This document shows positions 3,307 to 42,046 of a stretch of DNA of 58,823 nucleotides, in pieces. The notes under the pieces are model-generated. The model was not told the origin of the DNA and did no database searches. It worked only from the letters and a program-made list of their open reading frames with translations. The translations under genes were made by a program, and so were the position numbers. Every line of letters begins with the position of its first letter. The stretch's first letter is position 1. Source of the DNA: a virus (lineage: Duplodnaviria > Caudoviricetes); the IMG/VR virus record IMGVR_UViG_3300009537_000010, positions 1-58,823 of that record; one strand, written 5' to 3'.

Positions 3307-3680
3307 AATACATAAGGCAGTTTAAGTAGTATAGGAAACTCTCCTTTACTTCTTTCACTTCTAATATATTTTCTCAGAAGTTGAAGTTTGTCATGAGGAA
3401 TTATACCATCCTCAGTATATTTTAGAAATCCTTTCTCCATCAGACTCTTCTTAAGATGAGAAAGCTGGGCAATACTCATTTTTAAAGTAGCAGCTATCCT
3501 CTTATGAGAAGCTCTCTTGAAAATAGGCTTATCTATATTTCCTGCCAGGACTATTGATAGCACATCAATCTCTCTATCAGTAAGCACTTCATAGTTAAGG
3601 TTAATCACCTTCAGATATATATTCCAGAATTTATCTTCTGAAACGTTAATATCCTGACCTTTGTTTATATCAATTTCCAT
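3303..3680 (-). CDS. winged helix-turn-helix DNA-binding protein
   Basis: LTDREIDVL...KRIAATLKMSIAQLSHLKKSLMEKGFL is a wHTH signature. Confidence 0.65.
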   Translation of the reverse strand: MEIDINKGQDINVSEDKFWNIYLKVINLNYEVLTDREIDVLSIVLAGNIDKPIFKRASHKRIAATLKMSIAQLSHLKKSLMEKGFLKYTEDGIIPHDKLQLLRKYIRSERSKGEFPILLKLPYVL

Positions 3681-4158
3681 AATTTATTTCTATAGCTCTC
3701 CTCACCCATCCTGATAAGAAGACCTTTAATGATTTCTTAGCTTGAGCAAGATCAACATAGTATTTTATCCTCTCGACTGTCAATGCACTATTAAATAAAA
3801 ATGGAGCATTATCAAGAGCTTCCCTGGTTCTCTCATCTAAGACACCAGTTATCTCAAGGTTAGCATTTATCCTATTTAATGTTCTCTGTAAAGTCTTGAC
3901 AGCGTTTCTATTACCCATATTTACAGACATATCAAACATCTGTAACCTTACAGAGACAGGATAGTTTTCAATCTTATACTTATTCCAAAAGTCTCTTTTA
4001 TAGATTTCAACAGCTTGCTCTTTAGTTAAATTCTTAATGTCAAGATCAGGGTAACTTCGTTTGGTAATACCCCAATTAGTCTCACCACCAGGGTCGGAAG
4101 GATGATTAACATATCCACCTTCATGTTTTAAAACACTTAATATGGCAGTACTAAACAT
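3670..4158 (-). CDS. endolysin, glycoside hydrolase family 108 with C-terminal peptidoglycan-binding region
   Basis: HEGGYVNHPSDPGGETNWGIT, FDMSVNMG and FLSGWVRR motifs; start placed at ATG 4158 (ORF track 4191). Confidence 0.92.
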   Translation of the reverse strand: MFSTAILSVLKHEGGYVNHPSDPGGETNWGITKRSYPDLDIKNLTKEQAVEIYKRDFWNKYKIENYPVSVRLQMFDMSVNMGNRNAVKTLQRTLNRINANLEITGVLDERTREALDNAPFLFNSALTVERIKYYVDLAQAKKSLKVFLSGWVRRAIEINYGN

Positions 4159-4456
4159 TATCAGTAATTTTCCAGTCATTCGCATAAGCATCTTCTTTTG
4201 ACGGAGTCCATAACATCAAAGTATGGTCACCAGTAAACAGGCACAAATCCTGATCTTTATCAAAATATAACTGTCCTCTAGGCCAGGATTGCCGGGTTAC
4301 AGGTATTCCATTCTTAACGAAACATAGAGCCTGATAAAAGGTCAAGTTCTCTTCTTTCTCAGGTAAATCAAGATGCATAGAACTTCTAATCACATACAGT
4401 GTATCCCTCACAAGGTCAATATGGGATAGATCTGGTTGAATACCTCTTCTTTTCAT
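4151..4456 (-). CDS. DUF2829 / Tad2-like protein (putative anti-defence signal sponge)
   Basis: LTFYQAL..VKNG.PVTRQSW...WTPSKEDAYANDWKI matches the family pattern F.eAl..lK.G..v.R.gW...W.ps..D.la.DW. Confidence 0.7.
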   Translation of the reverse strand: MKRRGIQPDLSHIDLVRDTLYVIRSSMHLDLPEKEENLTFYQALCFVKNGIPVTRQSWPRGQLYFDKDQDLCLFTGDHTLMLWTPSKEDAYANDWKITDNV

Positions 4457-4460
4457 ATTA

Positions 4461-4479
4461 CAAATATACGAAAAAGTTT
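4461..4479 (-). promoter_or_regulatory. Bacteroidota housekeeping-sigma promoter (-7 element TAnnTTTG), copy 1
   Basis: minus strand aaactttttcgTATATTTG, 4 nt upstream of the ATG at 4456; no clear -33 TTTG. Confidence 0.7.
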
Positions 4480-4516
4480 CTGAATTTAACTATTATCTTT
4501 ACATTAAAGTAAAGAA

Positions 4517-4545
4517 AAGTTAAACCGAGCAAGATCGCTCGGTCA
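4517..4545 (-). terminator. intrinsic terminator-like hairpin
   Basis: minus strand accgagc-gatctt-gctcggt followed by ttaactttt. Confidence 0.55.
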
Positions 4546-4745
4546 AAATATGTTATGTTTTCAGAGCAAATCGGTATTTTTTAGCAGGTTTAGCCTAAAG
4601 GCGACATCCGAGAGTCATTTTCAACCACAAACCACATTGGGTAATGACATCTAAATATTTCCGATCTTTCAATGGTCGCATCTCAAGGAATCTCTATAAC
4701 TTGATGTTATCTCTAATTTGAGGCTTGAGAGTCTAAACCAACTCT
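4517..4745 (-). ncRNA. candidate ~230-nt structured small RNA
   Basis: no long ORF; bounded by promoter copy 2 and a terminator hairpin; internal stems agagt/actct, ctcaag/cttgag, gtcatt/aatgac. Confidence 0.4.
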
Positions 4746-4750
4746 GAGTG

Positions 4751-4769
4751 CAAATATACGAAAAAGTTT
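4751..4769 (-). promoter_or_regulatory. Bacteroidota housekeeping-sigma promoter (-7 element), copy 2
   Basis: exact 19-bp repeat of 4461-4479 (caaatatacgaaaaagttt). Confidence 0.7.
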
Positions 4770-4977
4770 TTGAAATACATACTTTAGTTGACAACAAAGT
4801 AAACAAAATAGCCACTTTTTTTACTAATATAGTGTTAATTATATGTTAAATATACTTTAAAAAGCCCATTCTACGGGCAAAAAAGGATATACCATGAGTT
4901 TTATCATTTTTTTTAATTTTTTTTATAATTTTTCAACATTTTTATTTTTTTTTATAATTTTAGGGGCATTTTATAAT

Positions 4978-5050
4978 CTTAAAGGATGGAACTTGTGTGT
5001 TTCTATATTTTATTTTGTAAGCTTAAAGAATGGAACTTGCGTGCTTCTAT
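4978..5050. repeat. 29-bp imperfect direct repeat beside a poly-T tract at the strand switch
   Basis: cttaaaggatggaacttgtgtgtttctat (4978-5006) vs cttaaagaatggaacttgcgtgcttctat (5022-5050), 3 mismatches. Confidence 0.75.
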
Positions 5051-5304
5051 CTAAGAAGAGACCCCATCCAAAATTTGAGCAGAGGGAATACCCCGTCAAT
5101 CGAACGGTAAGAGACTCCTTTTGCTCTATTATGTCACCTTTAAATTAAACATCATGTCACTAGGCGAATTGACCGACGCTGCTGATCAAGGCAATGACTT
5201 CATTGACTCATTGTTTGAGTGGTGACACTAAGTGGTCTGTTGATCTCTAAAAACAGACCCTTTCCATAGGTTGAGTATCTTATTTTTTCATCTAAATATT
5301 TAAC

Positions 5305-5706
5305 ATGAAGAACGGATTTGCTATTGTCGCGGCTAAGACAGCGACACTTTACAAGGATGAGGCCAAGACCGAGTTGCGTCTTGACAAGAACGGGGAAAGA
5401 CCGATCATCCTTATTCCAGTCGGTGGACAGATTCCAAACAGGAACGTCCTAAGCGGCACAGCGGCCGCAAACGCTGGATTTCAGTCCAACAAGACGTACC
5501 TTGCAACTTATCGGGAGACAACTCCTGATGAGGATTATGGACGTCAGTTCGAATGGACAATGGTACAGGAGATCCATAGTCCGATCGACGTGATTGACGG
5601 TTGTTCCAAGCTTGGCCAACCTGACGTATTCAACGTTCTACCTGAAGGGCAGACCGAAGAGACGTCAGTTCATGCCAAAGCTCAGGCAGCCACATTTCCC
5701 GAGTAG
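5305..5706 (+). CDS. first early gene, hypothetical protein
   Basis: 133-aa ORF, visibly GC-richer than the genome, followed by a terminator. Confidence 0.75.
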   Translation: MKNGFAIVAAKTATLYKDEAKTELRLDKNGERPIILIPVGGQIPNRNVLSGTAAANAGFQSNKTYLATYRETTPDEDYGRQFEWTMVQEIHSPIDVIDGCSKLGQPDVFNVLPEGQTEETSVHAKAQAATFPE

Positions 5707-5725
5707 AGATCGAAAGATCTCTTTT
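5705..5725 (+). terminator. intrinsic terminator
   Basis: agagatc-gaaa-gatctct followed by T run. Confidence 0.7.
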
Positions 5726-6239
5726 GAACCGACTAGCTAATAGATAGCTAGTTATCAAATGACCAGTCAATATGTAAACGAACTACAAAAGTAGTTGAGT
5801 GAGTAATTGGCTGGTCACATTTTATTTTGATTATTCTCAGGTTGTGGTGTATCAGTTGGGAACAAAGTACACGTTCCATAGTTGTAGGTTGATGCTGATA
5901 GGCCCTTAAATAAACTAACCTTCCATTTGGCACTGGGTGAGATACTAACAAGATACTTGACAGGCAAACGCCGCAAGATATCAGCTCTACATAGAGAGTG
6001 CCCTCTTGTAGAGTTATTTACTACTTCGATTAATCGCAGATATGTATTCTTTTTGAACAACAGTCTAACAATCAATAAGTTATGTTGGTAACATTAGCAA
6101 TTATCATGGTCACATTAGCCATATTATGGTTTATTTACCGTGAGTTTAGTCTCCAAAGAAGGAAGAACCAACCCCAAAAACTTCCAGATAATGAAAAAAG
6201 ATCAAATAAACTCCACTAACTTCAGGAAAAGATAAAATC

Positions 6240-6536
6240 ATGAACTTACAACACAAATCAATAAGCTATCTAACTAGTTTATACAGAGCTAATCATACTG
6301 ATAAGCAAATATGTGCTGAGATAGATGCTGAAGTGGATAGAAGGATTGAGAATGAGACAATACTCAAAGGTTATAAGTGGGTTAATGATCCAAATGATGA
6401 TTTTAGAGGTGATAAAGCACATCAAGAGAAATGTCTTGCATACACTGGTAATGCTGGTAAACATTTATCACTACGACCAAGAGGTTGGAAATACTCTAAT
6501 AATCCAGTGGTTTGTTTGGGACTTGTTCCACTATAA
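6240..6536 (+). CDS. hypothetical early protein
   Basis: 98-aa ORF with A-rich leader. Confidence 0.55.
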   Translation: MNLQHKSISYLTSLYRANHTDKQICAEIDAEVDRRIENETILKGYKWVNDPNDDFRGDKAHQEKCLAYTGNAGKHLSLRPRGWKYSNNPVVCLGLVPL

Positions 6537-7050
6537 AAAGTGAAGTCATCCTACACCCTAAGTTAGGGTCACAACAGAGAAGTTGGGGTTTAAAAACTCC
6601 ATGCTGAGCAATCATGTTAAACTGCTTATTTTTATTCATCTTTCAATACATATATCATGCAAAATTCATTTGACGAAGCAGCTCCATTATTCATAATTCA
6701 AGCAATCATAGCTATAATCCTCTTTGCAGTAGCAGTATGGGGAATGTGTCAATAAAGAGTTAATCTTATTAGATAACACAAGTCAAACCTTGGCTACCAA
6801 TAGCTTAATAAACTCTAAGATTATGTTCTTTGAAGGTATGCTTGAGACAGGGTATAAATACTGGATAAATACCAATTTACTCCCAGATATTGACACTAAT
6901 GACTGGTGTTGGTTAAGATATTGGCCTGGTAATTTCTTTGACACAAAGGAAGAGAGGGATTTAGCAATTGGAGCCATCAAGACATATCTTAAGTATAAAG
7001 ACTATTCATCATACCTTACGCTTCTCAATCAACTACTAATAGCTTAGCAT

Positions 7051-7443: not shown

Positions 7444-7557
7444 ATTTTAAGATAAAAGTAAGTGGGGAGCTTAGTTAGATATTCACAGTTTTCCTTAGAG
7501 GTATTTTAGACTTTATTTTAGGATAAGTAAACCACTTACTTTATAATTTCTAACATA

Positions 7558-7632
7558 TGCCGGATAGCTCACCGGGTGAGAGCGAGAGTTTGTGGAGCTC
7601 TAGGGTAGGGTTCGAGTCCCAGCCGCGCATCA
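7558..7632 (+). tRNA. degenerate tRNA-His(GUG)-like gene
   Basis: D arm gctc/gagc, anticodon arm agagt-ttGTGga-gctct, T loop ggTTCGAgtcc; acceptor stem has 3 mismatches and T stem one. Confidence 0.55.
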
Positions 7633-7651
7633 GTGTATAAAATGATATATT

Positions 7652-8257
7652 ATGAGAGAAGTAATCATCCCTGGGACTGATTGTAGATATACAATTGGTG
7701 AAGATGGAGAAATGTATTCATATTATGGTAACAGAAAGAGATTAAAAAAGCGGCTTGACAAACTTGGTATAGCAACAGTAAAAGTGCGCTTCCATAACAA
7801 GGATGTAACTTATTACATATCACTTCTTATGAGAGATGCATTTAATTTAACACCACCAGATAGTTATCACTTATACCATCTTACTACTATAGATGGTGAT
7901 CCATTCAATAATTGTCTTAACAATTTACATTTTAGGAAAAGATTAAACACTAACTATCCGTTTTATCCAGAAACATTCTATAATTTTAAGGGAGAACTAA
8001 TACATAAAACCTGTGGTAAATGTGGAGATACTAGAGAGATAAAACATTTCCCAAAAGTACCAAGTAAACAAAAAGGAGCTTTTACATATGCTAATAGTTG
8101 TTACAGGTGTGTACCACGTATAACAGGTAAGGAAACACTTGCACCTTACTATATTGCTAAAAATCTTAGACTACATGTAAGTGATCTTACACCTGAAGTC
8201 ATCAGAATATATAAAAAGAAAAAGAATTTACAAAATCATCTAAAAACTTTATCATGA
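7652..8257 (+). CDS. NUMOD4/HNH-like protein with C-terminal CxxC...CxxC zinc site
   Basis: IPG...YTIGEDGEMYS (NUMOD4-like), IDGDPFNNCLNNL (HNH_3-like, catalytic His apparently missing), CGKC and CYRC. Confidence 0.55.
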   Translation: MREVIIPGTDCRYTIGEDGEMYSYYGNRKRLKKRLDKLGIATVKVRFHNKDVTYYISLLMRDAFNLTPPDSYHLYHLTTIDGDPFNNCLNNLHFRKRLNTNYPFYPETFYNFKGELIHKTCGKCGDTREIKHFPKVPSKQKGAFTYANSCYRCVPRITGKETLAPYYIAKNLRLHVSDLTPEVIRIYKKKKNLQNHLKTLS

Positions 8258-19386: not shown

Positions 19387-19824
19387 ATGATTTATGTTAA
19401 AGATAGACCAAGTCTGATAAAAAGTAGAAAATCACTATCTGAATTTATAGAACATTTCATAAGAACCTCTCCTGGTACGTTTGATAAAGATGGTGAACTA
19501 CAATGTTTTCCAAGAAAAAAGAGATCATTTGGAGACACTGTGGCATTATGTAAGACTTATTTTAAGTGTACCAAAGTTGATGTGGCTAAGGTCCTTCTAG
19601 AACTTTGCTCTCAAGGTATAGCAAGAATTAGTTATTGTCCTACTATAAGAAAGAGAGTTATTTTTATTAATAATAACGCAAATTATAGTGTTCGCCATAG
19701 CAGATATGTGACAGGACTACTTAGAATGTGTGGTTACAAATATAATATTGAACATTATCACTCTTGTGTAATGATCTGTTATCAAAGTGATAATGGAAAA
19801 AGAATAATAATTTCAAATTATTGA
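19387..19824 (+). CDS. hypothetical protein, paralog of 18160-18456
   Basis: QCFPRKKRSFGDTVALCKTYF...YCPTI. Confidence 0.6.
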   Translation: MIYVKDRPSLIKSRKSLSEFIEHFIRTSPGTFDKDGELQCFPRKKRSFGDTVALCKTYFKCTKVDVAKVLLELCSQGIARISYCPTIRKRVIFINNNANYSVRHSRYVTGLLRMCGYKYNIEHYHSCVMICYQSDNGKRIIISNY

Positions 19825-20669
19825 CGAAAAATGAAGTAGGAGAACAAGCGTTAGATTCACTAGAGAATCTTGAAGGTATTCTTGATATGGCCCCCAGAAC
19901 CGGAAAGACAAAGATAGCTATTGAAGCCATCCGACATTTTCCAGGTAAAGTACTTGTAACTTATCCTTATAATGTTATTGGTGAGGTATGGAGAGAGGAG
20001 CTACAAAAATGGAATGGCCCTTCTTTAACTCTGGCAAATCAACGAAACATACCAGATGAAGAATTTGACTTGATTATTTGTGATGAAATCCATAGTTTAA
20101 GTGAGGCTCAAATAAATAGACTTAAAGGTAGTAAGATCCTCGGTTTAACTGGATCATTGTCAGAAGAAACAGCTAAAATACTTAAACAAAAACTTGGACT
20201 TGACGTAAAGTATACCTACACAATAGATCAGGCAATCATAGATGGTATTATATCTAATTATCAGATCACAGTATTTTTTCTCCCACTGGATACTAAGGAA
20301 AAATATGTAGAAGCTGGTACTAAGAAAAAACCGTTCTTAACAACAGAACGTGTCAATTATGAGTATTTAACTAAACAATTCAATCGTTTTAAATACTTAT
20401 CTTGGCAAGATCCAACATTAGCAAATGTAAAAATGTCTTTTGCTGGTAAGAGAGCAAGAGGTATCTATTCTTATAAAAGCAAATTAGAAGCAGTTAAATC
20501 CTTCCTAAGAACTCTTGATGAAAGGTATATGATTTTCACTGTATTAAATAATATTGCTAATGAATTATCAGAACATAGATATCACTCTAAATCAGAAGGA
20601 GACGAGCTGGATAAATTTATAAATGGTGAATTTCCCAGTATTTCAGTATGTAATATGGTATCAATGGGT
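19821..20669 (+). CDS. superfamily 2 DExH helicase, exon 1
   Basis: Walker A APRTGKT, DEIH, motif III LTGS; homology breaks after ...NMVSMG in motif V. Confidence 0.85.
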
Positions 20670-20719
20670 AGACTTAAATGCCCCTTTAATTAATAATAAT
20701 TTTAGCAAACACAGAATCC

Positions 20720-21097
20720 ATGGAATTTAAAAGCGTAGAGGAGATTTTATCCCTAGACCTGGAGGAGGATGACGCACTCATTGGTCCTTTTTCGGTAGGC
20801 GACAAAAATAGTTATACTCTTGAGGTCATGCATCCGGGTTGGAACTGTCAACTGGTAGTACTTGATGCAGTAGATGCTTTTCTTCGAAGAAACCTAAATG
20901 TAGACATGCAAGAGTTCAAAGAAGTAGTATCTAGAATTATGAGACCTTGTGTCTTTATACATTTGACTGATCCAGATATAATGGATCTTATAGAGCAACA
21001 TTTTGAAGTACTATACTGTAACGAAATAGTTGCCAGAAATGGTCATATTCAATATCATATACTGTTTAAAAATCCTCGCTACATACCATGGGGTTGA
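20720..21097 (+). CDS. intron cargo ORF1, unknown function
   Basis: 125-aa ORF between P1 and P4; no HNH, GIY-YIG or LAGLIDADG motif seen. Confidence 0.7.
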   Translation: MEFKSVEEILSLDLEEDDALIGPFSVGDKNSYTLEVMHPGWNCQLVVLDAVDAFLRRNLNVDMQEFKEVVSRIMRPCVFIHLTDPDIMDLIEQHFEVLYCNEIVARNGHIQYHILFKNPRYIPWG

Positions 21098-21124
21098 AAA
21101 GCTAACGGAGAAACTCTTTTTAAT

Positions 21125-21490
21125 ATGAAAACAATAGAATCGGAATTAGAGAAATATATTGAGAAGACAACTGCCGTCGCGTCACTTGATTTTACTGATG
21201 CAATCTATATTAAATCTCCAAGAGATCATAGAAAGAGAAAACAATGGACTCAAGTCCATGAAATACAGTGGATGATAAATGGAGATTACTGGATAGTAAA
21301 AACCAATCGTTTTGGTTGGGAAATGCTATCTGATTGTATTATAAAACAAAACGCGCGAGAGACTGACAATGTGCAACCTAATCTAAAAGAGATTCTTGAT
21401 TATTGCAAGAGACACCATTTAAAATGTGTGGAAGAATTTGATCAAAAATGTTGGTCAGAAGTAATTAAGATTTATCTAAGGAAAGGTTGA
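21125..21490 (+). CDS. intron cargo ORF2, overlapping the ribozyme core
   Basis: 121-aa open frame covering P4', P6, P7 5' strand and P8; stop TGA lies at the end of P8'. Confidence 0.6.
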   Translation: MKTIESELEKYIEKTTAVASLDFTDAIYIKSPRDHRKRKQWTQVHEIQWMINGDYWIVKTNRFGWEMLSDCIIKQNARETDNVQPNLKEILDYCKRHHLKCVEEFDQKCWSEVIKIYLRKG

Positions 21491-21519
21491 AGATACAGTC
21501 CAAATTACAAATATAAACG

Positions 21520-22071
21520 ATGAAAAATTTTAATAGAAGATTGACTTATTCTGCATATAATGATAAAGAGAAGGTACTTGACATAGATCATGAGATGTGT
21601 TTTGGTGATCTTAGAAGATTAACTCACAAATATACACATATCAAGATTAAGTTGTTTAGAAGATCTAAGAAATTTGAGGAGATAGTAAACAAAATTCATC
21701 CTATCACTATTGATGACGATTTTCTACAATTTGAAACTCTTGGTTATAAGAAAGATTTAATGTTTCTTACACTTCTGAGACCGTTGTGTGAAAGATATTG
21801 CATAGGTGACTCAGAAAATCATATTGGAGATTGTGAAAAGATCTTGAAGTCGTTTGAAGAGAATGTCTCCGAATACGAAGATCCAATGAGTCAATACTGT
21901 GATTTAGTCGAGAAATGTCATATACCATTAATGGCAGGAGGTTTTGGATATTATAAGTCTCATTATCTTGGTGCAACTAAAGACTTACAGATAAAAACAT
22001 TGGAAGACTTTAAAAGTTATGTACCTGGTCAAGTATCATGGGTCAATAAATTCTTCACTACTAAATTGTAA
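21520..22071 (+). CDS. intron cargo ORF3 in the P9 loop
   Basis: 183-aa ORF enclosed by ttacaa (21505)/ttgtaa (22066); weak resemblance to 28722-29276 and 29895-30416. Confidence 0.7.
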   Translation: MKNFNRRLTYSAYNDKEKVLDIDHEMCFGDLRRLTHKYTHIKIKLFRRSKKFEEIVNKIHPITIDDDFLQFETLGYKKDLMFLTLLRPLCERYCIGDSENHIGDCEKILKSFEENVSEYEDPMSQYCDLVEKCHIPLMAGGFGYYKSHYLGATKDLQIKTLEDFKSYVPGQVSWVNKFFTTKL

Positions 22072-22079
22072 ACAAAAAG

Positions 22080-22304
22080 GTTACGATACCAGATTTAAAA
22101 ATAGGTGTTTTTCATCAACTTCAATCATCTGAAGAGTTGGCAATCCAAAAGTCATTAAGATTTATGAATCTTGACGAAAATAAAATTGCTCAGCTCTATA
22201 TATTTGCGTATGCGAATACAGTTGACCAGGAGTGGGTTGAGAAAGCCATAAAACCATTTAAAAATATTACTTATGCTTATTGGGATCAACCAACTATGCA
22301 ATAA
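22080..22304 (+). CDS. superfamily 2 helicase, exon 2 (absent from the ORF track)
   Basis: VTIPDLKIGVFHQLQSSEELAIQKSLR...YANTVDQEWV supplies the rest of motif V and motif VI; spliced product 357 aa. Confidence 0.85.
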   Translation, partial: VTIPDLKIGVFHQLQSSEELAIQKSLRFMNLDENKIAQLYIFAYANTVDQEWVEKAIKPFKNITYAYWDQPTMQ

Positions 22305-22896
22305 AACAAATAATTACAATGATCTGTTCTCCAAATACGGAGATGTTGTAAATGCTGGATTAAGATTTAATCCAGATATAGAGTTTTTAGTTTTAACAGG
22401 AGGAGCAGATGTAGATCCAGCTAGATATGGTGCAAAAAGAGAGAAACAGACTAGTGATCCTGACCCTTGGAAAGAGAAATTTGATACAGAGCTATTACCT
22501 CTTTACATTGAAAAGGGTATACCTATAGCAGGTATCTGCAGGGGACATCAGACGTTAGCAGTCAACCAAGGTATGTCATTAACTCAACATGTACACCACA
22601 CATGGATGAATGTAATACTATTTGATGGTTACTATCATGTAGTTAACTCTTATCATCATCAGGTAGTTACTGAAGCAAATGAAAATGCTGAAGTTGCTGC
22701 CATAGATACTACATTTGGTACAATTGAAGCGTTAAGATATACTAATATAAATGCTATATCTGTACAATGGCATCCTGAATTACTTTACGAAGACTGTGAA
22801 GTAACCAAAAAACTCCTATCAGAAATTGGAATTAAAGAACCAGTTAAAAAACTTAGGAATAGAAAAAATAGATTCAGTTCTATTATACCTTTTTAG
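22273..22896 (+). CDS. class I glutamine amidotransferase-like / peptidase C26 family
   Basis: LTGGADVDP, GICRGHQ, VNSYHHQ, VQWHPE. Confidence 0.9.
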   Translation: MLIGINQLCNKTNNYNDLFSKYGDVVNAGLRFNPDIEFLVLTGGADVDPARYGAKREKQTSDPDPWKEKFDTELLPLYIEKGIPIAGICRGHQTLAVNQGMSLTQHVHHTWMNVILFDGYYHVVNSYHHQVVTEANENAEVAAIDTTFGTIEALRYTNINAISVQWHPELLYEDCEVTKKLLSEIGIKEPVKKLRNRKNRFSSIIPF

Positions 22897-23350
22897 TCTG
22901 CAATATGATATTAATATTGAGTTAGATATTTCCAAAGAGGATATGGCTCTTATTAAAAAACATAAGCTAGCAAAAAGGAATTATAAGAACGGTAGCTATG
23001 ATACAATTCTTGGGAAAGGTGAAAGGACGAGTACTCTACTTAAAGTTGTAGAAGAGAGAGTAGACGAGTATCGTCTTTTATTCAAAAATACTGGTATTCC
23101 TGGTAAAATGGGTGATAGGAATGCTTGTATCAAGAAATTAGTAAAGTTCTTGGAAATACGTCCTCAGATAACGATGGATGAAGTAATTGAGGTAGCAAGG
23201 TATTATTGTCAAAACTATAAACAGATAACAAATTATCTACAACAAGCAGATTATTTTATAGAAAAGAATGGACAATCAAGACTTGCTGCTTTGTATGATG
23301 AGAGACCTCAACATGTAGAGTCTAATGAGTATGGAGGTAATTTAGTTTGA
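22826..23350 (+). CDS. hypothetical protein upstream of DnaB, possible replication initiator/helicase loader
   Basis: 174-aa ORF coupled to the helicase; function inferred from position only. Confidence 0.45.
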   Translation: MELKNQLKNLGIEKIDSVLLYLFSLQYDINIELDISKEDMALIKKHKLAKRNYKNGSYDTILGKGERTSTLLKVVEERVDEYRLLFKNTGIPGKMGDRNACIKKLVKFLEIRPQITMDEVIEVARYYCQNYKQITNYLQQADYFIEKNGQSRLAALYDERPQHVESNEYGGNLV

Positions 23351-24252
23351 AGACAGTAGACATTGCAATTCAGGAAGAATTAGACTATATAAGAGGTAGA
23401 AAGACTGGAGAGATAACATCTGTAAAGTGCCAATATCCAGCCATCAATAGTGTGTATATGGACGGATTTGAATGGGGCTGGATAGTTACTATTGGAGGAA
23501 TGTCTGGTAGTGGAAAGACTTCGTTTATGAACAGTCTTGAAGAAGGAATTTGTGGGTTGAATGAGAATGTTTCTGTTCTATCGTTTAACTTTGAGATGTT
23601 AGCTCGAAGATTGATTGGTAGAAAAATCTCGTCTATAACTAATCTTTCTGTTAAACAGTTGTACAGTGCAGATGGAGTTCTTTCAGATGACCAATGGGAG
23701 CATATTACCAAAGAAGTCACGCCTATGTTAGGCAAACATGATGTCACATATACAGAGTACAGACAGACTGTACCAGAAATGATAGACACAGTCAAGAGAT
23801 TTCTTGATAAAAAAGCTCCCAATGGTGTTATTGTAGAAGTAGATCACTCATTATTAGTAAAGAGACTAAGGAATGCAAATGAAAGAGATACGCTAATAGA
23901 TCTTACTTCAGAGTTCAATGATCTGAAGAAACAGTACCCAAAGTTATTGTTCTTTATAGTTAGTCAACTAAATAGGGATATAGAAGAAGACAACAGGATA
24001 ATCAATCCGAATCTTCATTTCCCAAGAAAGAAAGATCTCTTTGGATCAGATTCTATTTTTCAAATCTGTGATGGTGTAATGATTCTACATAGACCAGAAA
24101 TGCTTGGTATTACCTATTATGGAGCAAAGCAATGGCCAGTTAAAGATCTGGTATACCTACATCACTTAAAAGTAAGAGATGGAGAGCCTGTTATTAATAG
24201 GTTCAAAAACGATCTAAAACATAACAAGCTTTTATGGCAAAAGGAATCTTAG
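23347..24252 (+). CDS. dnaB: DnaB-like replicative helicase
   Basis: GGMSGSGKT, FNFEM, VDH, SQLNR, DLFGSDSIFQICD, KVRDG. Confidence 0.9.
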   Translation: MKTVDIAIQEELDYIRGRKTGEITSVKCQYPAINSVYMDGFEWGWIVTIGGMSGSGKTSFMNSLEEGICGLNENVSVLSFNFEMLARRLIGRKISSITNLSVKQLYSADGVLSDDQWEHITKEVTPMLGKHDVTYTEYRQTVPEMIDTVKRFLDKKAPNGVIVEVDHSLLVKRLRNANERDTLIDLTSEFNDLKKQYPKLLFFIVSQLNRDIEEDNRIINPNLHFPRKKDLFGSDSIFQICDGVMILHRPEMLGITYYGAKQWPVKDLVYLHHLKVRDGEPVINRFKNDLKHNKLLWQKES

Positions 24253-24923
24253 TCCTTGGAGAAAGTGGTTTAGGAAAATCCACATCTATTGGAAATATTC
24301 CAGAGATAGGAATTCAAGGACTTCCACCAAAAGAAACAGTTATTATTAATCCGAGAGGTAAAATACTACCTTTCAGATCTAAGGGATACACAAAATTTGA
24401 TAAAGATCATCTTACTGGAAATCATTTAACTACTCTAGATGCAGGTGAAATAATTAATGCACTGAGATATGTGAATGAAAACAGACCAGAGATCAAATAT
24501 GTGGTATTCGACGATGCTCAATATATAATGGCAAGCTATTTCATGGAAAATGCTTTAGTTAAAGGTGAAAAAGTTTATACAATGTTTAGAACTTTAGCTA
24601 AAGATATGTATGACTTGCTAAATATAGGTCTTGGTATGAGAGATGATATTGTATTTATTACAATGAGTCATTCAGAAGAGACCAGAGATGGATTTAAGAT
24701 GAAAACTATCGGAAAGATGTTCGATCAATATTGTACTCCCGAAGGTATGTTTTCTATAGTTCTATACACTTTGGTGAAAACTGAAGGTAAAAAGGTAGAA
24801 CATTTTTTCCTGACAAACAACGATGGAGTGCATCCTGCCAAATCTCCATCTGGTATGTTTCCAGGATTACACATTCCTAATGATATGAGTGTGGTTATTA
24901 AATATCTAAATGAATATGTCTAA
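24234..24923 (+). CDS. AAA_24-like P-loop ATPase
   Basis: GESGLGKSTS, VVFDDAQY, KTIGKM, PEGMF, AKSP.GMF. Confidence 0.85.
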   Translation: MAKGILVLGESGLGKSTSIGNIPEIGIQGLPPKETVIINPRGKILPFRSKGYTKFDKDHLTGNHLTTLDAGEIINALRYVNENRPEIKYVVFDDAQYIMASYFMENALVKGEKVYTMFRTLAKDMYDLLNIGLGMRDDIVFITMSHSEETRDGFKMKTIGKMFDQYCTPEGMFSIVLYTLVKTEGKKVEHFFLTNNDGVHPAKSPSGMFPGLHIPNDMSVVIKYLNEYV

Positions 24924-38607: not shown

Positions 38608-40112
38608 GTGAATGAACTAGAATATTTTAATAATGAATTACCTGCCTCAGTCTGGAGAGACAAGTATACAGATGAAGGTGAACAGAATCCAGACGATATG
38701 CATAGACGGTTAGCTAGGGAACTAGCTGGGCCTCTTTCAGAAGAAGAGGTTTATAATTTGTTGAAGGACTTCAAATTCATAATTCCTCAAGGCTCTGTAA
38801 TGGCTACACTTGGGACAGAAAAGATAGCAAGTTTATCTAACTGTCTTGTAGTTGGTCAGCCAGAAGATTCCTACGGTGGAATTATGAGGAAAGATGAACA
38901 GCTGGTTCAAGCAATGAAACGAAGAATGGGTGTCGGTATAGATATTTCTTCACTTCGTCCAGCTGGTTCAGATGTTAACAATGCAGCTCAAACTTCAACA
39001 GGTGCTGTAAGTTTTATGCATAGATATTCAAATACAACAAGGGAAGTCGCGCAGGATGGTCGTAGAGGTGCATTAATGATATCTATGGATATCAGGCATC
39101 CCGATGTATTTGAATTTGTTAAGATGAAACAAGATCTTGCCAAAGTAACTGGTGCTAATGTGTCAGTAATGGTAAGAGATGATTTTATGAAAGCTGTTGA
39201 AGAAGATAAAGACTACTATCTTAGATGGCCTTGTGATTATGATATTGATAAATACATTAAAGATCTTCCTAAAGAATATTTAAGTGAAGAACATCTTCCA
39301 TATAACAAAATACAAACTTTATTGGAAGAATCAAATAATGTGTATTTTACTAGGATCAAAGCAAAAGAGCTTTGGGATCTTATAATTGAGTGCGCGTGGA
39401 ATAGTGCAGAACCTGGTGTTCTATTTTTAGATAGACATTGGAATTATTCTCCAGATTCAGTTTATTCGCAATATAAAGGAGTTACTACAAATCCTTGCGG
39501 AGAGATATTCATGCAAATGTATGATGCTTGCCGTCTGATTTGTGTAAACCTGTTTTCCTTTGTGAAGAATCCATTCAAGGATGATGCCTTTTTTGACTTC
39601 GAGTTATTTTACGACATATGTTACAAGCAACAATTATTAGCTGATCGTATTGTCGATTTGGAGCTTGAATACATAAAAAGGATAATTGAGAAGGTTGAGC
39701 AAAGTGGTGGAGAAAACCATGTTGAACTGGATCTTTGGAAGAATATACTTAAGGTGGCCGCTTCAGGGCGGAGGACAGGCTCAGGCCTTACTGCTTTAGG
39801 TGACTGCTTTGCTGCTCTTGGACTTGGATACGATAATGATGAGGCCAAAGCTCGACTGCGGCAAATCATGAAGACCAAGTTCGGAGCAGAATTGCAGTGT
39901 TCTGTTGATCTAGCTATAAAACATGGACATTTTGAAGGTTGGAATCCTGACTTAGAGTTTGATATAATAGGCAAAAAGAATGGATTTAGTGTAGTTGGAA
40001 AGAATCCCTTTTATCAAATGATTGCAGAAGAATTTCCAGAACTAGCTTTCAAGATGTGTGTTTTTGGTAGAAGAAATGTTTCTTTTTCGACTGTTGCTCC
40101 TACAGGTTCCGT
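38608..40112 (+). CDS. nrdJ: class II (B12-dependent) ribonucleotide reductase, exon 1
   Basis: SLSNC, QDGRRGALM, AEPG, TNPCGE, RRTG.G, VAPTGSV; no small-subunit gene in the window. Confidence 0.88.
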
Positions 40113-40213
40113 AAAATACTTGCGGCTTTGAGAAGTGATTCTCATTGAAAAATTGGATGAATTGCTGGAAAGCTAAAATTAACAATTAATTAACGATAAT
40201 TTAACATAAAATA

Positions 40214-40245
40214 TTTGGATCTTGTCCAATTATTTCGTATACTTA
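40214..40245 (+). promoter_or_regulatory. possible intron-internal promoter for the endonuclease
   Basis: TTTG at 40214 and tttcgTATACTTA, similar to the tttcgTATATTTG promoters at 4461/4751. Confidence 0.4.
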
Positions 40246-40266
40246 TGGGATTAAAACCATAATTTT

Positions 40267-40932
40267 ATGAGAAAAATGACAAGAAATGTTAAAGGACAAT
40301 ATGAAAAGGGTGGTAAAACTCGAAAATACTACCCCAAATTGGGAGACACTTATGGTGATTACATTGTTATTAGTGAAGATGTTGAATTTACTAATGATAA
40401 TAAAATTAAATATCATGTAAGATGTTCCTGTGGATATGAACATTTTGTAAGAGCTTACTTTCTGTTTACTGGTAGACAATTATCTTGTAGAGAATGTAGT
40501 AGTAGAAAAGCTTATAATAGAGCTTTAATAGAAGGTAAAAAAATAGGATTTATAAAATTACATCATGAAGGTGTAGGAAATCTTACTAAAACAGCATATT
40601 GGTATTTTAAAAATAATGCTGCAAGAAGAAAAATAGAGTGGTCTGAAGATTTGACTATTGAATATTTGTGGAAATTATTTCAAGATCAAAATAATAAATG
40701 TGCTCTTTCTGGATTAGATATAAAATTAACAGAAAAGAGAAAATTGTCAAACATAGATTTTGAGTATATGACCGCATCTCTTGATAGAATAGATTCATCT
40801 AAACCATATACCACAGATAATGTTCAATGGGTTCATAAAGATATTAATAGAATGAAATGGTGTTTCAAAGAAAATCGTTTCATTGAATTATGTAAATTAA
40901 TTGTTAATCATGCTAATCAGCAGCCTAGCTAA
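40267..40932 (+). CDS. intron-encoded HNH/His-Me homing endonuclease
   Basis: CSCG...SCREC N-terminal module; CALSG, SLDRIDSSKPYTTDNVQWVHKDINRMK. Confidence 0.88.
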   Translation: MRKMTRNVKGQYEKGGKTRKYYPKLGDTYGDYIVISEDVEFTNDNKIKYHVRCSCGYEHFVRAYFLFTGRQLSCRECSSRKAYNRALIEGKKIGFIKLHHEGVGNLTKTAYWYFKNNAARRKIEWSEDLTIEYLWKLFQDQNNKCALSGLDIKLTEKRKLSNIDFEYMTASLDRIDSSKPYTTDNVQWVHKDINRMKWCFKENRFIELCKLIVNHANQQPS

Positions 40933-41064
40933 GAGTACACTCTTAGAAGGTTCAGAGACTACTGGAGAGGTTTAGCCCTCTTAATAACCAGAATTAGCGT
41001 CCAACTTCCTCTGGCGAGGAAGATGATATAGTCCAAATCTATAAGAAATTATAGAACGAGAATG

Positions 41065-42046
41065 AAGTATTCTCACGCAAACTACTTCAGGATTAGAGCC
41101 ACTCTTTCAGCCATATTACATCAGGAGAAAGAAAGTTAATCCAGGAGACAGAGTAGACTTTGTTGATCAGAACGGTGATTCTTGGCAGGAGTATCCAGTT
41201 CTGCATTCAAAGTTTGTTGACTGGTGTCTCTCTAAGAATGACGGAAACAGTAAAGAGTTCTTAGAGTCTTTAGACAAAGAAACATTAGACGATTTATTTA
41301 AACTCTCTCCTTGGTATGGTTCAACCGCAAATGATATTGACTGGAAAAGCAGAATAGAGATTCAATCCATAATTCAAAAATACACAACCCATAGTATAAG
41401 TAGTACTATAAATCTTCCTAATAATGTAACAAAAGAGGAAGTAAGCGCTATTTACATGGAGGCTTGGAAGAAGGGATTGAAAGGCGTGACAATCTATAGA
41501 GAAGGTAGTAGAACAGGAGTTCTAATCAATAAGAAGGAGTTCAATCAACATGATGCTCCAAAACGTCCTAAGCAATTAGATGCAGTCTGGTATTCTACTA
41601 CAGCATCAAAAGAAGATTTACAGGTTATAGTTGGTCTATATGAGGAGAAACCATATGAAGTGTTTACCATATTTGAACCGCCTGAAATACCTGACTCTAC
41701 TATTGGTGCAGTAGTTAAGAACGCGAAAGGGAAATATTCTTTTCAGTCTCAAGACTATAAGAGAAGTAATATAATGCGTGAAGAGAATTCTGAACATGTA
41801 GCTATTTGTAGATTAGTCTCTACTAGTTTGAGACACGGAGCTGATGTAAAATTTATTGTTGAGCAATTAAACAAGACTCCAGGTGAGTTAAACAGCTTCG
41901 CAAGAGCGATTGGTAGAGTACTAAAAAAATATATACCAGATGGAGAAACAACAACAATCAGATTCGAAGACTGTGAAGGAGACTGTAACATCGTCTTTGA
42001 AGAAGGATGTATCACCTGTAAAACCTGTGGAAAGTCAAAATGTTAA
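41065..42046 (+). CDS. nrdJ: class II ribonucleotide reductase, exon 2
   Basis: open from 41066: TTSGLEP, SISSTINLP, GLKGVTIYREGSR, C-terminal FEEGCITCKTCGKSKC; spliced product 828 aa. Confidence 0.9.

Follow-up and report, generated by a model that had tools for sequence, protein, structure and literature searches.

A probable group I intron in a phage helicase gene, with a conserved reading frame threaded through its ribozyme core

Group I introns of fungal mitochondria include open reading frames (ORFs) that are fused to the exon, translate core sequence and encode LAGLIDADG or GIY-YIG maturases and endonucleases. Here, we describe a 1,410-nt insert in a helicase gene of the virus record IMGVR_UViG_3300009537_000010 (Duplodnaviria; Caudoviricetes). 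This record, with an estimated completeness of about 50%, was analysed over its whole length of 58,823 bp, hereafter designated as the window. With reasonable confidence, the anatomy of this insert can be read as that of a group I intron with a conserved, coding frame (ORF2) threading the ribozyme core. Unlike the fungal mitochondrial intron ORFs, ORF2 starts independently, the exon reading frame being closed 7 codons into the intron (TAA 20691-93).

In the part of their 2011 review that deals with ORF/core overlap, Edgell, Chalamcharla and Belfort listed overlaps of 9-81 nt and called the process "core creep" (PMC3073962). According to the same part, translation of I-TevI impairs td splicing, the defect being caused by ribosomes in the core, and ribosome sites hidden in hairpins have been reported (PMC3073962). 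The earlier note on this DNA, made from its letters alone, had started from the premise that intron ORFs normally lie in one peripheral loop and touch the core only at their ends, which needs softening with overlaps of up to 81 nt on record (PMC3073962). As portrayed there, T4 td/I-TevI is, like the window intron, a phage intron in a DNA-metabolism gene, with a P6-loop ORF whose end runs into the core; the td ribosome-binding site lies in an RNA hairpin and translation impairs splicing (PMC3073962), while in the window the ATG of ORF2 is paired in P5. The td overlap described in that part takes up just the last 20 nt of the gene for a known GIY-YIG endonuclease, whereas ORF2 includes two coding loops and some 55 nt of the core, paired and joining positions taken together. 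No endonuclease domain was found in the window intron, and P7.1/P7.2 are absent since J7/3 has only 4 nt. Reading through the core has a precedent in the LAGLIDADG ORF of the Synechococcus lividus large-subunit ribosomal DNA intron, since Table 1 of the review has it overlapping P6, P7, P3, P8, P9.0 and P9 (PMC3073962). This is a single case with a single ORF in P8 and 81 nt of overlap, for which the review cautions that ORF ends are predicted (PMC3073962); in contrast, the window family has coding inserts in L5, L6 and L8 of one frame, kept in 27 of 28 relatives. A literature search at listing level, covering main articles without their supplements, returned no description of such a core-threading arrangement.

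The helicase gene of the window is split. An ORF at 19821-20693 corresponds to a superfamily 2 (SF2) helicase (PF04851, phrog_16) that is interrupted within motif V; through ..NMVSMG, it aligns by BLASTP with residues 64-337 of the 413-aa helicase of Flavobacterium phage FpV21. A second frame, opening at 22065 (..VTIPDLKIGVFHQLQSSEELAIQKSLRF..), aligns with residues 333-402 of the same protein and also with the crAss-like phage cr111_1. The two pieces cover adjoining parts of the FpV21 helicase and, taken one after the other, line up with helicases that have no interruption; the gene is thus divided by an insert of 1,410 nt (20670-22079). Without this insert, motif V reads ..NMVSMG/VTIPDL.., restoring both the host reading frame and the conserved motif. 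Relatives of this helicase occur in Flavobacterium, Bacteroides (crAss-like) and Cellulophaga phages (76 records, every one below 60% identity); searches with 19800-22400 by blastn in phage records and with exon 1 in viral_contigs found no match and no close locus, respectively. The exons, the insert and ORF2 are as follows.

19821 to 20669, plus strand: helicase exon 1 (SF2, ResIII-type), ending ..NMVSMG in motif V with U as last base (Pfam PF04851, phrog_16, BLASTP)
22080 to 22304, plus strand: helicase exon 2 (VTIPDLKIGVF..IQKSLRF..), from alignment to FpV21 and cr111_1
20670 to 22079, plus strand: probable group I intron of 1,410 nt, last base G (omega-G); junctions restore motif V, with core helices and covariation in relatives
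21125 to 21490, plus strand: ORF2, 121 aa, ATG to TGA, the core-threading ORF

The insert is preceded by U and its final base is G (GGGU/A.. and ..AAAAAG/GUU), and a core in the canonical P3-P9 order, with the nested P3/P7 arrangement, can be laid out between its ends and is backed by covariation. Its elements are given below.

20666 to 20683, plus strand: P1, exon GGGU 20666-69 with guide GCCC 20680-83, read from the sequence, with a U-G wobble at the splice site
20710 to 20713, plus strand: P3 5' strand, CACA, pairing with UGUG 21370-73; covariation in relatives
20715 to 21095, plus strand: extra hairpin between P3 and P4 (AAUCCAUGG with CCAUGGGGUU) holding ORF1 in its loop, from comparison with L007, L008, L006 and L014
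21100 to 21108, plus strand: J3/4 and P4 5' strand (AGCUAACGG; P4 is 21105-08), the block AGCUAACGGRGAAAC being kept in L006-L009
21115 to 21167, plus strand: P5, a 13-bp stem of 21115-27 with 21155-67 in the minimum free energy fold, pairing the whole ORF2 ATG (21125-27)
21174 to 21177, plus strand: P4', CCGU (P4 being ACGG/CCGU), within ORF2, from fold and alignment
21178 to 21355, plus strand: P6, CGCGU 21178-82 with ACGCG 21351-55, and a branched extension of 168 nt that codes the middle module of ORF2
21356 to 21373, plus strand: J6/7 (21356-58), P7 5' strand, J7/3 and P3', encoding ..ARETDNV..
21374 to 21489, plus strand: P8, CAACCU 21374-79 with AGGUUG 21484-89, and a 104-nt loop that codes the C-terminal module of ORF2
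21490 to 21501, plus strand: J8/7 (AAGAUA) and P7' (CAGUCC; P7' is 21496-501), adjoined by the ORF2 stop at 21488-90
21505 to 22071, plus strand: P9, UUACAA 21505-10 with UUGUAA 22066-71, enclosing ORF3, read from the sequence

An unconstrained fold of 21085-21520 recovers P4, the 13-bp P5, P6, P7 (GACUG/CAGUC) and P8. The P7 5' strand is made of G21359, a bulged A21360 and GACUG 21361-65, followed by J7/3 (ACAA 21366-69) and P3' (UGUG 21370-73); both J6/7-P7 and J8/7-P7' (AAGAUACAGUCC) are similar to the Rfam group I consensus. The P6 domain, which lies wholly within ORF2, folds at -54 kcal/mol versus -29.4 +/- 3.5 for its shuffles (z = -7.0; -6.3 in a second run), with z from -1.9 to -3.8 for the P6 domains of six relatives. 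Pairing of GGGUUG 21091-96 with CAACCU had been tried as P3 and was dropped: CAACCU/AGGUUG is replaced by UACCUGA/UCAGGUA in L007 and was thus assigned to P8, while a different 4-nt P3 covaries. Subgroup IA2, the T4 td type, is defined by P7.1/P7.2 between P7 and P3'. Only ACAA separates P7 from P3' in 28/28 aligned members, which places this family outside IA2. The P4-P6 sequences of T4 td and the window intron presumably look alike.

ORF2 begins within P5 and passes through P5', P4', P6-L6-P6', J6/7, P7, J7/3, P3' and P8-L8-P8', its TGA (21488-90) spanning the P8'-J8/7 border. The earlier note had read this frame as open through P4' (21174-77), P6, J6/7, P7 and P8 up to 21488-90, with enlarged P6 (~170 nt) and P8 (~100 nt) loops; the fold and the conserved blocks of the relatives bear this out, the loops measuring 168 and 104 nt and coding in frame. 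To its helices can be added the 13-bp P5 with the whole ATG, as well as P3 (CACA 20710-13 with UGUG 21370-73). None of 5,000 dinucleotide shuffles of 21098-21519 yielded an ATG-initiated ORF of at least 121 codons (mean 30, maximum 112), and a chance origin of the frame is excluded.

A HMMER search with ORF2 against 1.84 billion representatives returned seven short homologues with 44-62% identity, together with five long repeat proteins regarded as spurious. The homologues led to two viral contigs, L006 and L007. In L006, a homologous insert interrupts a ribonucleotide reductase (RNR) gene (..EGR / (K)RGALM..), and in L007 a DnaB-like gene within Walker A (GK / T); both inserts are preceded by U, end in G and show a U-G pair at the P1 splice site, and their junctions restore conserved motifs (..EGR/RGALM.. 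and GK/T). DNA patterns drawn from the conserved blocks, and hence blind to ORFs, matched 4 and 6 stretches in viral_contigs and 28 in metagenome_contigs; the 38 pattern instances in the window and loci were reduced to 28 distinct ones after removing 10 duplicates. Overall, the intron family has about 30 members in phage and marine metagenome contigs, hosted by helicase, ribonucleotide reductase and DnaB-like genes. A blastn search with the compact core of L006 in phage records gave only a weak match to the uncultured phage cr1_1 (E 6e-3); the family was thus not found in any cultured phage of that record collection, and its members so far appear confined to uncultured phage and marine metagenome contigs.

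Covariation across these members supports the core. In a MAFFT alignment of 28 members, P6, P7 and P8 together were paired in 98.8% of 501 cells versus 22-37% when the 3' partners were slid by 1-3 columns; 6 of the 18 pairs were changed on both sides, and 0/500 shuffles matched any of five measures. Of these helices, the search pattern prescribed the P8 5' strand and part of P7, and the 3' partners of both were free to vary. One P7 pair is A-U in 14/28 and G-C in 14/28 members, and unpaired in none; P6 pairing is complete (100%) with two pairs changed on both sides, and P8 is paired in 96.9% of cells, occurring in L006 as a compact hairpin. P4 is paired in 74/75 cells (15 family members), and a U-A pair of P5 in one of L006 and L007 is C-G in the other. 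The P3 pairing was a prediction made first and then borne out in the loci: in 8/9 loci, the 4 nt immediately before a conserved GAAUY can pair with the 4 nt that follow ACAA, with five pair combinations (CACA/UGUG in the window, UUCC/GGAA, CUCA/UGAG, CUCA/UGGG and CAUC/GAUG), no such site being found in the ninth (L011). A stricter context search, which missed known loci and chose a non-homologous site in the window, was used only for extra examples (CUCU/GGAG and UUCA/UGAA). The P1 guide also tracks the exon, with GCCC facing GGGU in the window and GCGCC facing an exon end GGCGU in L006. The peripheral hairpins are more variable: the hairpin between P3 and P4 is short and GAAA-capped in the relatives compared (L007, L008, L006 and L014), and P9 is a compact GUGA-capped hairpin in L013, L019, L023 and L040, while in L007 it has a layout like that of the window, with CUAUAA / UUAUAG around a 130-aa ORF.

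The frame is conserved along with the core. The same frame is open over 73-251 codons in 27 of the 28 distinct relatives found by pattern, the other two being open for just 2-38 codons. Open already upstream of the P4'/P6 block (..DNPVPS[LI]..), it passes the P7 block (..NGVET[DN]xxQP..) and reaches a stop that mostly precedes the J8/7-P7' block by 2-10 nt; this stop falls 6 nt within the block in a few members and precedes it by 113 nt in one. Three of these ORFs run off the contig end. L007 and L009, found with other patterns, likewise have a threading ORF. The exception, L006b, has a 23-nt L6, a 3-nt L8 and no threading ORF, and keeps the conserved core blocks, which are therefore conserved even where they are unread in this frame. 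From this comparison, we read the open frame as an added, selected feature and the RNA constraint as independent of coding. Stops and frameshifts in homologous introns, named in the earlier note as evidence that would speak against its proposal of a dual-coded region, were thus looked for in 28 relatives, and the proposal survived.

The core itself appears to set which frame can be read. Within the P7 block, the other two frames stop, one at UAG and the other at UAA or UGA, and a single frame is used by all members because only that one is stop-free across the core. Core-encoded peptides are ..AVASL.. and ..NARETDNVQP.. in the window, the relatives having ..DNPVPSL.. and ..QNGVETxxEQP..; between L006 and L007, the residue at the D/G position of ..K[DG]NPVPS.. 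changes along with the U-A or C-G pair of P5. As judged from these sequences, the short peptides would be dictated by the RNA, the L6 and L8 inserts behaving as protein modules under their own selection.

Two further loci extend this picture. At 1576-1902 of L007, the threading ORF continues past P8' through J8/7, P7' (..ETV..) and P9, with still more of the core translated in its frame. That of L009 (minus strand, 7527-7985 of the reversed locus) holds second, degenerate copies of the P4'/P6 block and of the P7 block, which look like a partial tandem duplication of the core with its insert.

The L6 and L8 inserts vary among members, many L8 inserts being Cys-rich. Where two members have a module in common, amino-acid-changing differences per site (pN) are usually well below silent ones (pS), as in the following pairs.

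Window and L006, L6: pN 0.34, pS 0.71
Window and L007, L6: pN 0.32, pS 0.79
L011 and L020, L6: pN 0.18, pS 0.50
L015 and L017, L6: pN 0.29, pS 0.77
L025 and L035, L8: pN 0.10, pS 0.35
L025 and L028, L8: pN 0.22, pS 0.60

The codon score of ORF2 (0.334 bits/codon) compares with 0.41 +/- 0.07 for the genes of this phage and 0.289 for the 5th percentile of 121-codon windows, and was matched by 29 of 3,000 stop-free random sequences. AlphaFold2 with an eight-sequence alignment of ORF2 gave a mean predicted local distance difference test (pLDDT) of 75.1 and a predicted template modelling (pTM) score of 0.64, with block means of 78-91 over residues 21-80; the single-sequence model was poor (pLDDT 46). 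One homologue of the L6 module, P0012, is devoid of both core-encoded linker motifs, which suggests that this module also exists as a free-standing domain outside introns. The dual coding put forward in the earlier note is thus upheld by a frame kept in 27/28 relatives, with the other frames closed, and by coding inserts that look protein-constrained.

Several observations weigh against reading this insert as a group I intron with a coding, core-threading frame. Rfam RF00028 gave no match for this intron in scans of the window, of 19500-24500 and of 21050-21560, at the gathering threshold or at E<=10, the best score being 8.1 bits at 21433-21519 versus a gathering threshold of 50 bits, and group I membership is argued from comparative structure. 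Group I introns do not usually have a P3 as short as 4 bp, nor an additional hairpin between P3 and P4. The helicase motif VI (22140-22170) reads QKSLRFMNL versus QRIGRLIRF in FpV21, one of the two arginines being gone, and the host helicase encoded with this exon 2 may be impaired, atypical or not fully functional. The Rfam result and the degenerate motif VI, together with three ORFs packed in an operon-like manner, could be taken to indicate a dead intron or a gene cassette, with the helicase being a pseudogene or made as two polypeptides and the three ORFs being ordinary phage genes. We regard this as highly improbable: the core helices and junctions are all intact and match the family with covariation, the correct bases stand at both junctions, exon 2 has no start codon before the remainder of motif V (ATG, GTG and TTG are all absent upstream of 22137), and the junctions deduced for L006 and L007 restore conserved motifs too. 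The Rfam miss is probably due to the large L6 (168 nt) and L8 (104 nt) loops, which with the ORFs in other loops are estimated to cost tens of bits; L006 and L007 had no Rfam group I match either. In the Cronobacter phage CR9 DNA polymerase intron, which Rfam does detect (56.7 bits versus a cut-off of 50), one stretch is 87% identical (E 0.01) to P8-J8/7-P7' of L006b.

Other adverse points concern the protein. The L6 module of L013 and L025 has a ratio of nonsynonymous to synonymous rates (dN/dS) of 0.97, and that of L021 and L041 a ratio of 1.46 on a poor alignment (11 of 32 residues). L006 and L007 differ in only 15/70 codons (5 synonymous, 10 not), distributed 6/4/5 over the three codon positions with no third-position excess, and 11 of 194 open off-frame runs match the codon score of ORF2. 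No Pfam or PHROG family was found for ORF2, and fold searches gave nothing significant, reaching E 0.066 with Foldseek and Z 3.4 with VIA-align at best. Likewise, Pfam gave nothing above cut-off for 10 threading ORFs, with a weak PvuRts1I-like match of L024 below it (E 0.027); no Pfam or PHROG nuclease family was recognised in ORF1, ORF2 or ORF3 at the thresholds used; and ORF2 had no usable match in the ESM Atlas and none by tblastn in phage records or by word-based protein search. One could therefore imagine that ORF2 specifies no functional protein, the frame being kept open since ribosome passage matters (by unfolding or clearing the RNA, or by avoiding polarity), or being merely inherited from an ancestor. 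The exact coincidence of the conserved peptides with conserved RNA elements, the missing third-position excess between L006 and L007, the two module pairs with dN/dS near or above 1 and the lack of a known domain would all fit. This explanation is nevertheless very doubtful: the L6 and L8 inserts, which are non-homologous and reach about 390 nt, are stop-free in frame in 27/28 members, pN is well below pS for most module pairs, the AlphaFold model is confident over the L6 module, and P0012 suggests a free-standing domain. The weak fold matches are small barrels, Tudor/SH3/KOW-like (E >= 0.066, Z <= 3.4), and our best guess is that a small beta-barrel, a nucleic-acid-binding accessory protein of the intron, is encoded.

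If the insert is a group I intron with a coding frame through its core, its loops would carry genes, with ORF1 in the P3-P4 hairpin and ORF3 in L9, and ORF2 would thread the core. Splicing of the intron and translation of ORF2 are both predicted from these features, and their order is less certain than the anatomy. A folded ribozyme and a translating ribosome should exclude one another on a single RNA molecule, because P5, P4, P6, P7, P3 and P8 must all be opened by a ribosome on ORF2, and the ATG is masked when P5 is folded. Since the ATG would be hidden in this way, the simplest order places splicing first, and ORF2 would be translated from either the excised intron or part of the precursor pool, as RNA that is no longer or not yet folded. 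The mutual exclusion of translation and splicing proposed in the earlier note can thus be retained as a physical expectation, with a melted core and an ATG buried in P5. Its extension, a competition between ribosome loading and ribozyme folding that acts as a switch to time or dose helicase production in infection, seems unlikely. The exclusion is physically unavoidable, with the ATG paired in P5 and ORF2 spanning P5' to P8', the arrangement is kept in 27/28 relatives, and early I-TevI translation lowers splicing of T4 td, as noted in the part of the review concerned (PMC3073962). However, nothing connects this arrangement with timing; the same intron type occurs in helicase, RNR and DnaB-like genes, pointing to a feature centred on the intron rather than on the helicase; L006b is a family member without a threading ORF; and in the single studied case, as that part of the review presents it, the antagonism is a suppressed cost that is not exploited (PMC3073962). 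The timing switch therefore found no support, and splicing first, with translation of the released intron, fits equally well.

A broader, tentative possibility, which we would not favour at present, is that the core segments serve at once as catalytic RNA, as fixed in-frame peptide linkers and as recombination joints for swapping L5, L6 and L8 coding cassettes. Such a domain-shuffling scaffold would yield a product that needs ribozyme unfolding, so that ribosome loading and splicing would compete on every precursor and thereby determine how much host protein is made relative to intron protein. Several hints of shuffling were noticed: L011 and L015 are identical in their L5 part (55/55 codons, 0 nucleotide differences) and L022 and L025 share 49/49, while the L6 and L8 translations of both pairs look unrelated by eye, and L013 shares its L6 with L025 (21/37) and its L8 with L029 (16/20). 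A nucleotide-identity table intended as a mosaicism test was discarded as too noisy, with a median of 65% for any pair.

Overlap between ORF and core, and antagonism between translation and splicing, are already known at a smaller scale. What is new is the extent of the translated core (all from P5' to P8'), a single frame with coding inserts in as many as three loops, the conservation across a family, the lack of a recognisable endonuclease and the presence of several cargo genes in one intron, among which L006 has a glutamine amidotransferase. Such overlap has so far been treated as marginal (a few to 81 nt), while nearly the whole core 3' of P5 lies here in one frame in about 30 introns, which can serve as natural replicates on how one sequence meets RNA-structure and protein constraints. 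This family may also offer a clean system for ribosome-ribozyme competition in a prokaryotic setting, and illustrates that several genes other than those for endonucleases can be carried by group I introns of phages. Introns of this kind escape standard RNA-family scans, and split genes are therefore perhaps under-recognised in phage metagenomes.

The insert carries three tightly packed ORFs (20720-21097, 21125-21490 and 21520-22071), with just 114 nt being non-coding. The two that flank ORF2 are as follows.

20720 to 21097, plus strand: ORF1, 125 aa, of no known family, with its start in the 5' strand and its stop in the 3' strand of the P3-P4 hairpin
21520 to 22071, plus strand: ORF3, 183 aa, with no homologue found, in L9, its stop lying within the P9 3' strand

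The L007 intron encodes a distant homologue of ORF1 (22% identity, E 3e-7). ORF1 and ORF2 share a frame, with one UGA and nine sense codons between them (21095-21127; open stretch 21098-21490), which may be a matter of chance (1 in 3), and no sign of stop-codon recoding was found elsewhere in the window.

In L006, two introns of this family occur in the same RNR gene (3370-5130 and 5480-6900). The threading ORF is present in one of them; the other, L006b, lacks it, and its compact core is preceded by two ORFs of 235 and 169 aa. A glutamine amidotransferase gene (4305-5111; phrog_7218, E 1.9e-41) lies within an intron of L006, between P9 and the 3' splice site, and a homologous gene occurs in the window (22273-22896) directly after helicase exon 2, overlapping its last 32 nt. 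The J8/7-P7' block of L014 is shortened (..GAGAUAGU followed by AAAAUG..; minus strand, about 870-1000 of the reversed locus). An ORF with a LAGLIDADG-like motif (..LIGLTIGDGN..) starts at this point, as though an endonuclease gene had entered the P7' strand.

A second group I intron was identified in an RNR gene of the window (about 40113-41065; core 40844-41055; ORF 40267-40932). The RNR exon 1 ends ..APTGSV near 40112, and the frame of exon 2 opens at 41066 (..ILTQTTSGLEP..). Rfam RF00028 scores 37.8 bits at 40844-41055, below the cut-off of 50, in the search that gave 8.1 bits for the helicase intron, and the ORF, which has an HNH-like motif by eye, overlaps with its 3' end the 5' part of this match (40844-40932). 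The window RNR intron and the CR9 polymerase intron are both detected by Rfam (37.8 and 56.7 bits), carry HNH ORFs and have the same type of J8/7-P7' sequence as the family described here, but each has a single recognisable endonuclease ORF that overlaps at one end only. In the CR9 intron (L043, 820-1553), two P7-like elements (near 963-975 and 1452-1465) flank the HNH ORF; the Rfam alignment takes the first, while the second fits the consensus better. Threading of P7 by this HNH ORF is not claimed, since the locus has two R-like elements. Finally, a tRNA-like gene occurs at 7558-7630 of the window, just over the Rfam threshold (30.0 bits versus 29).

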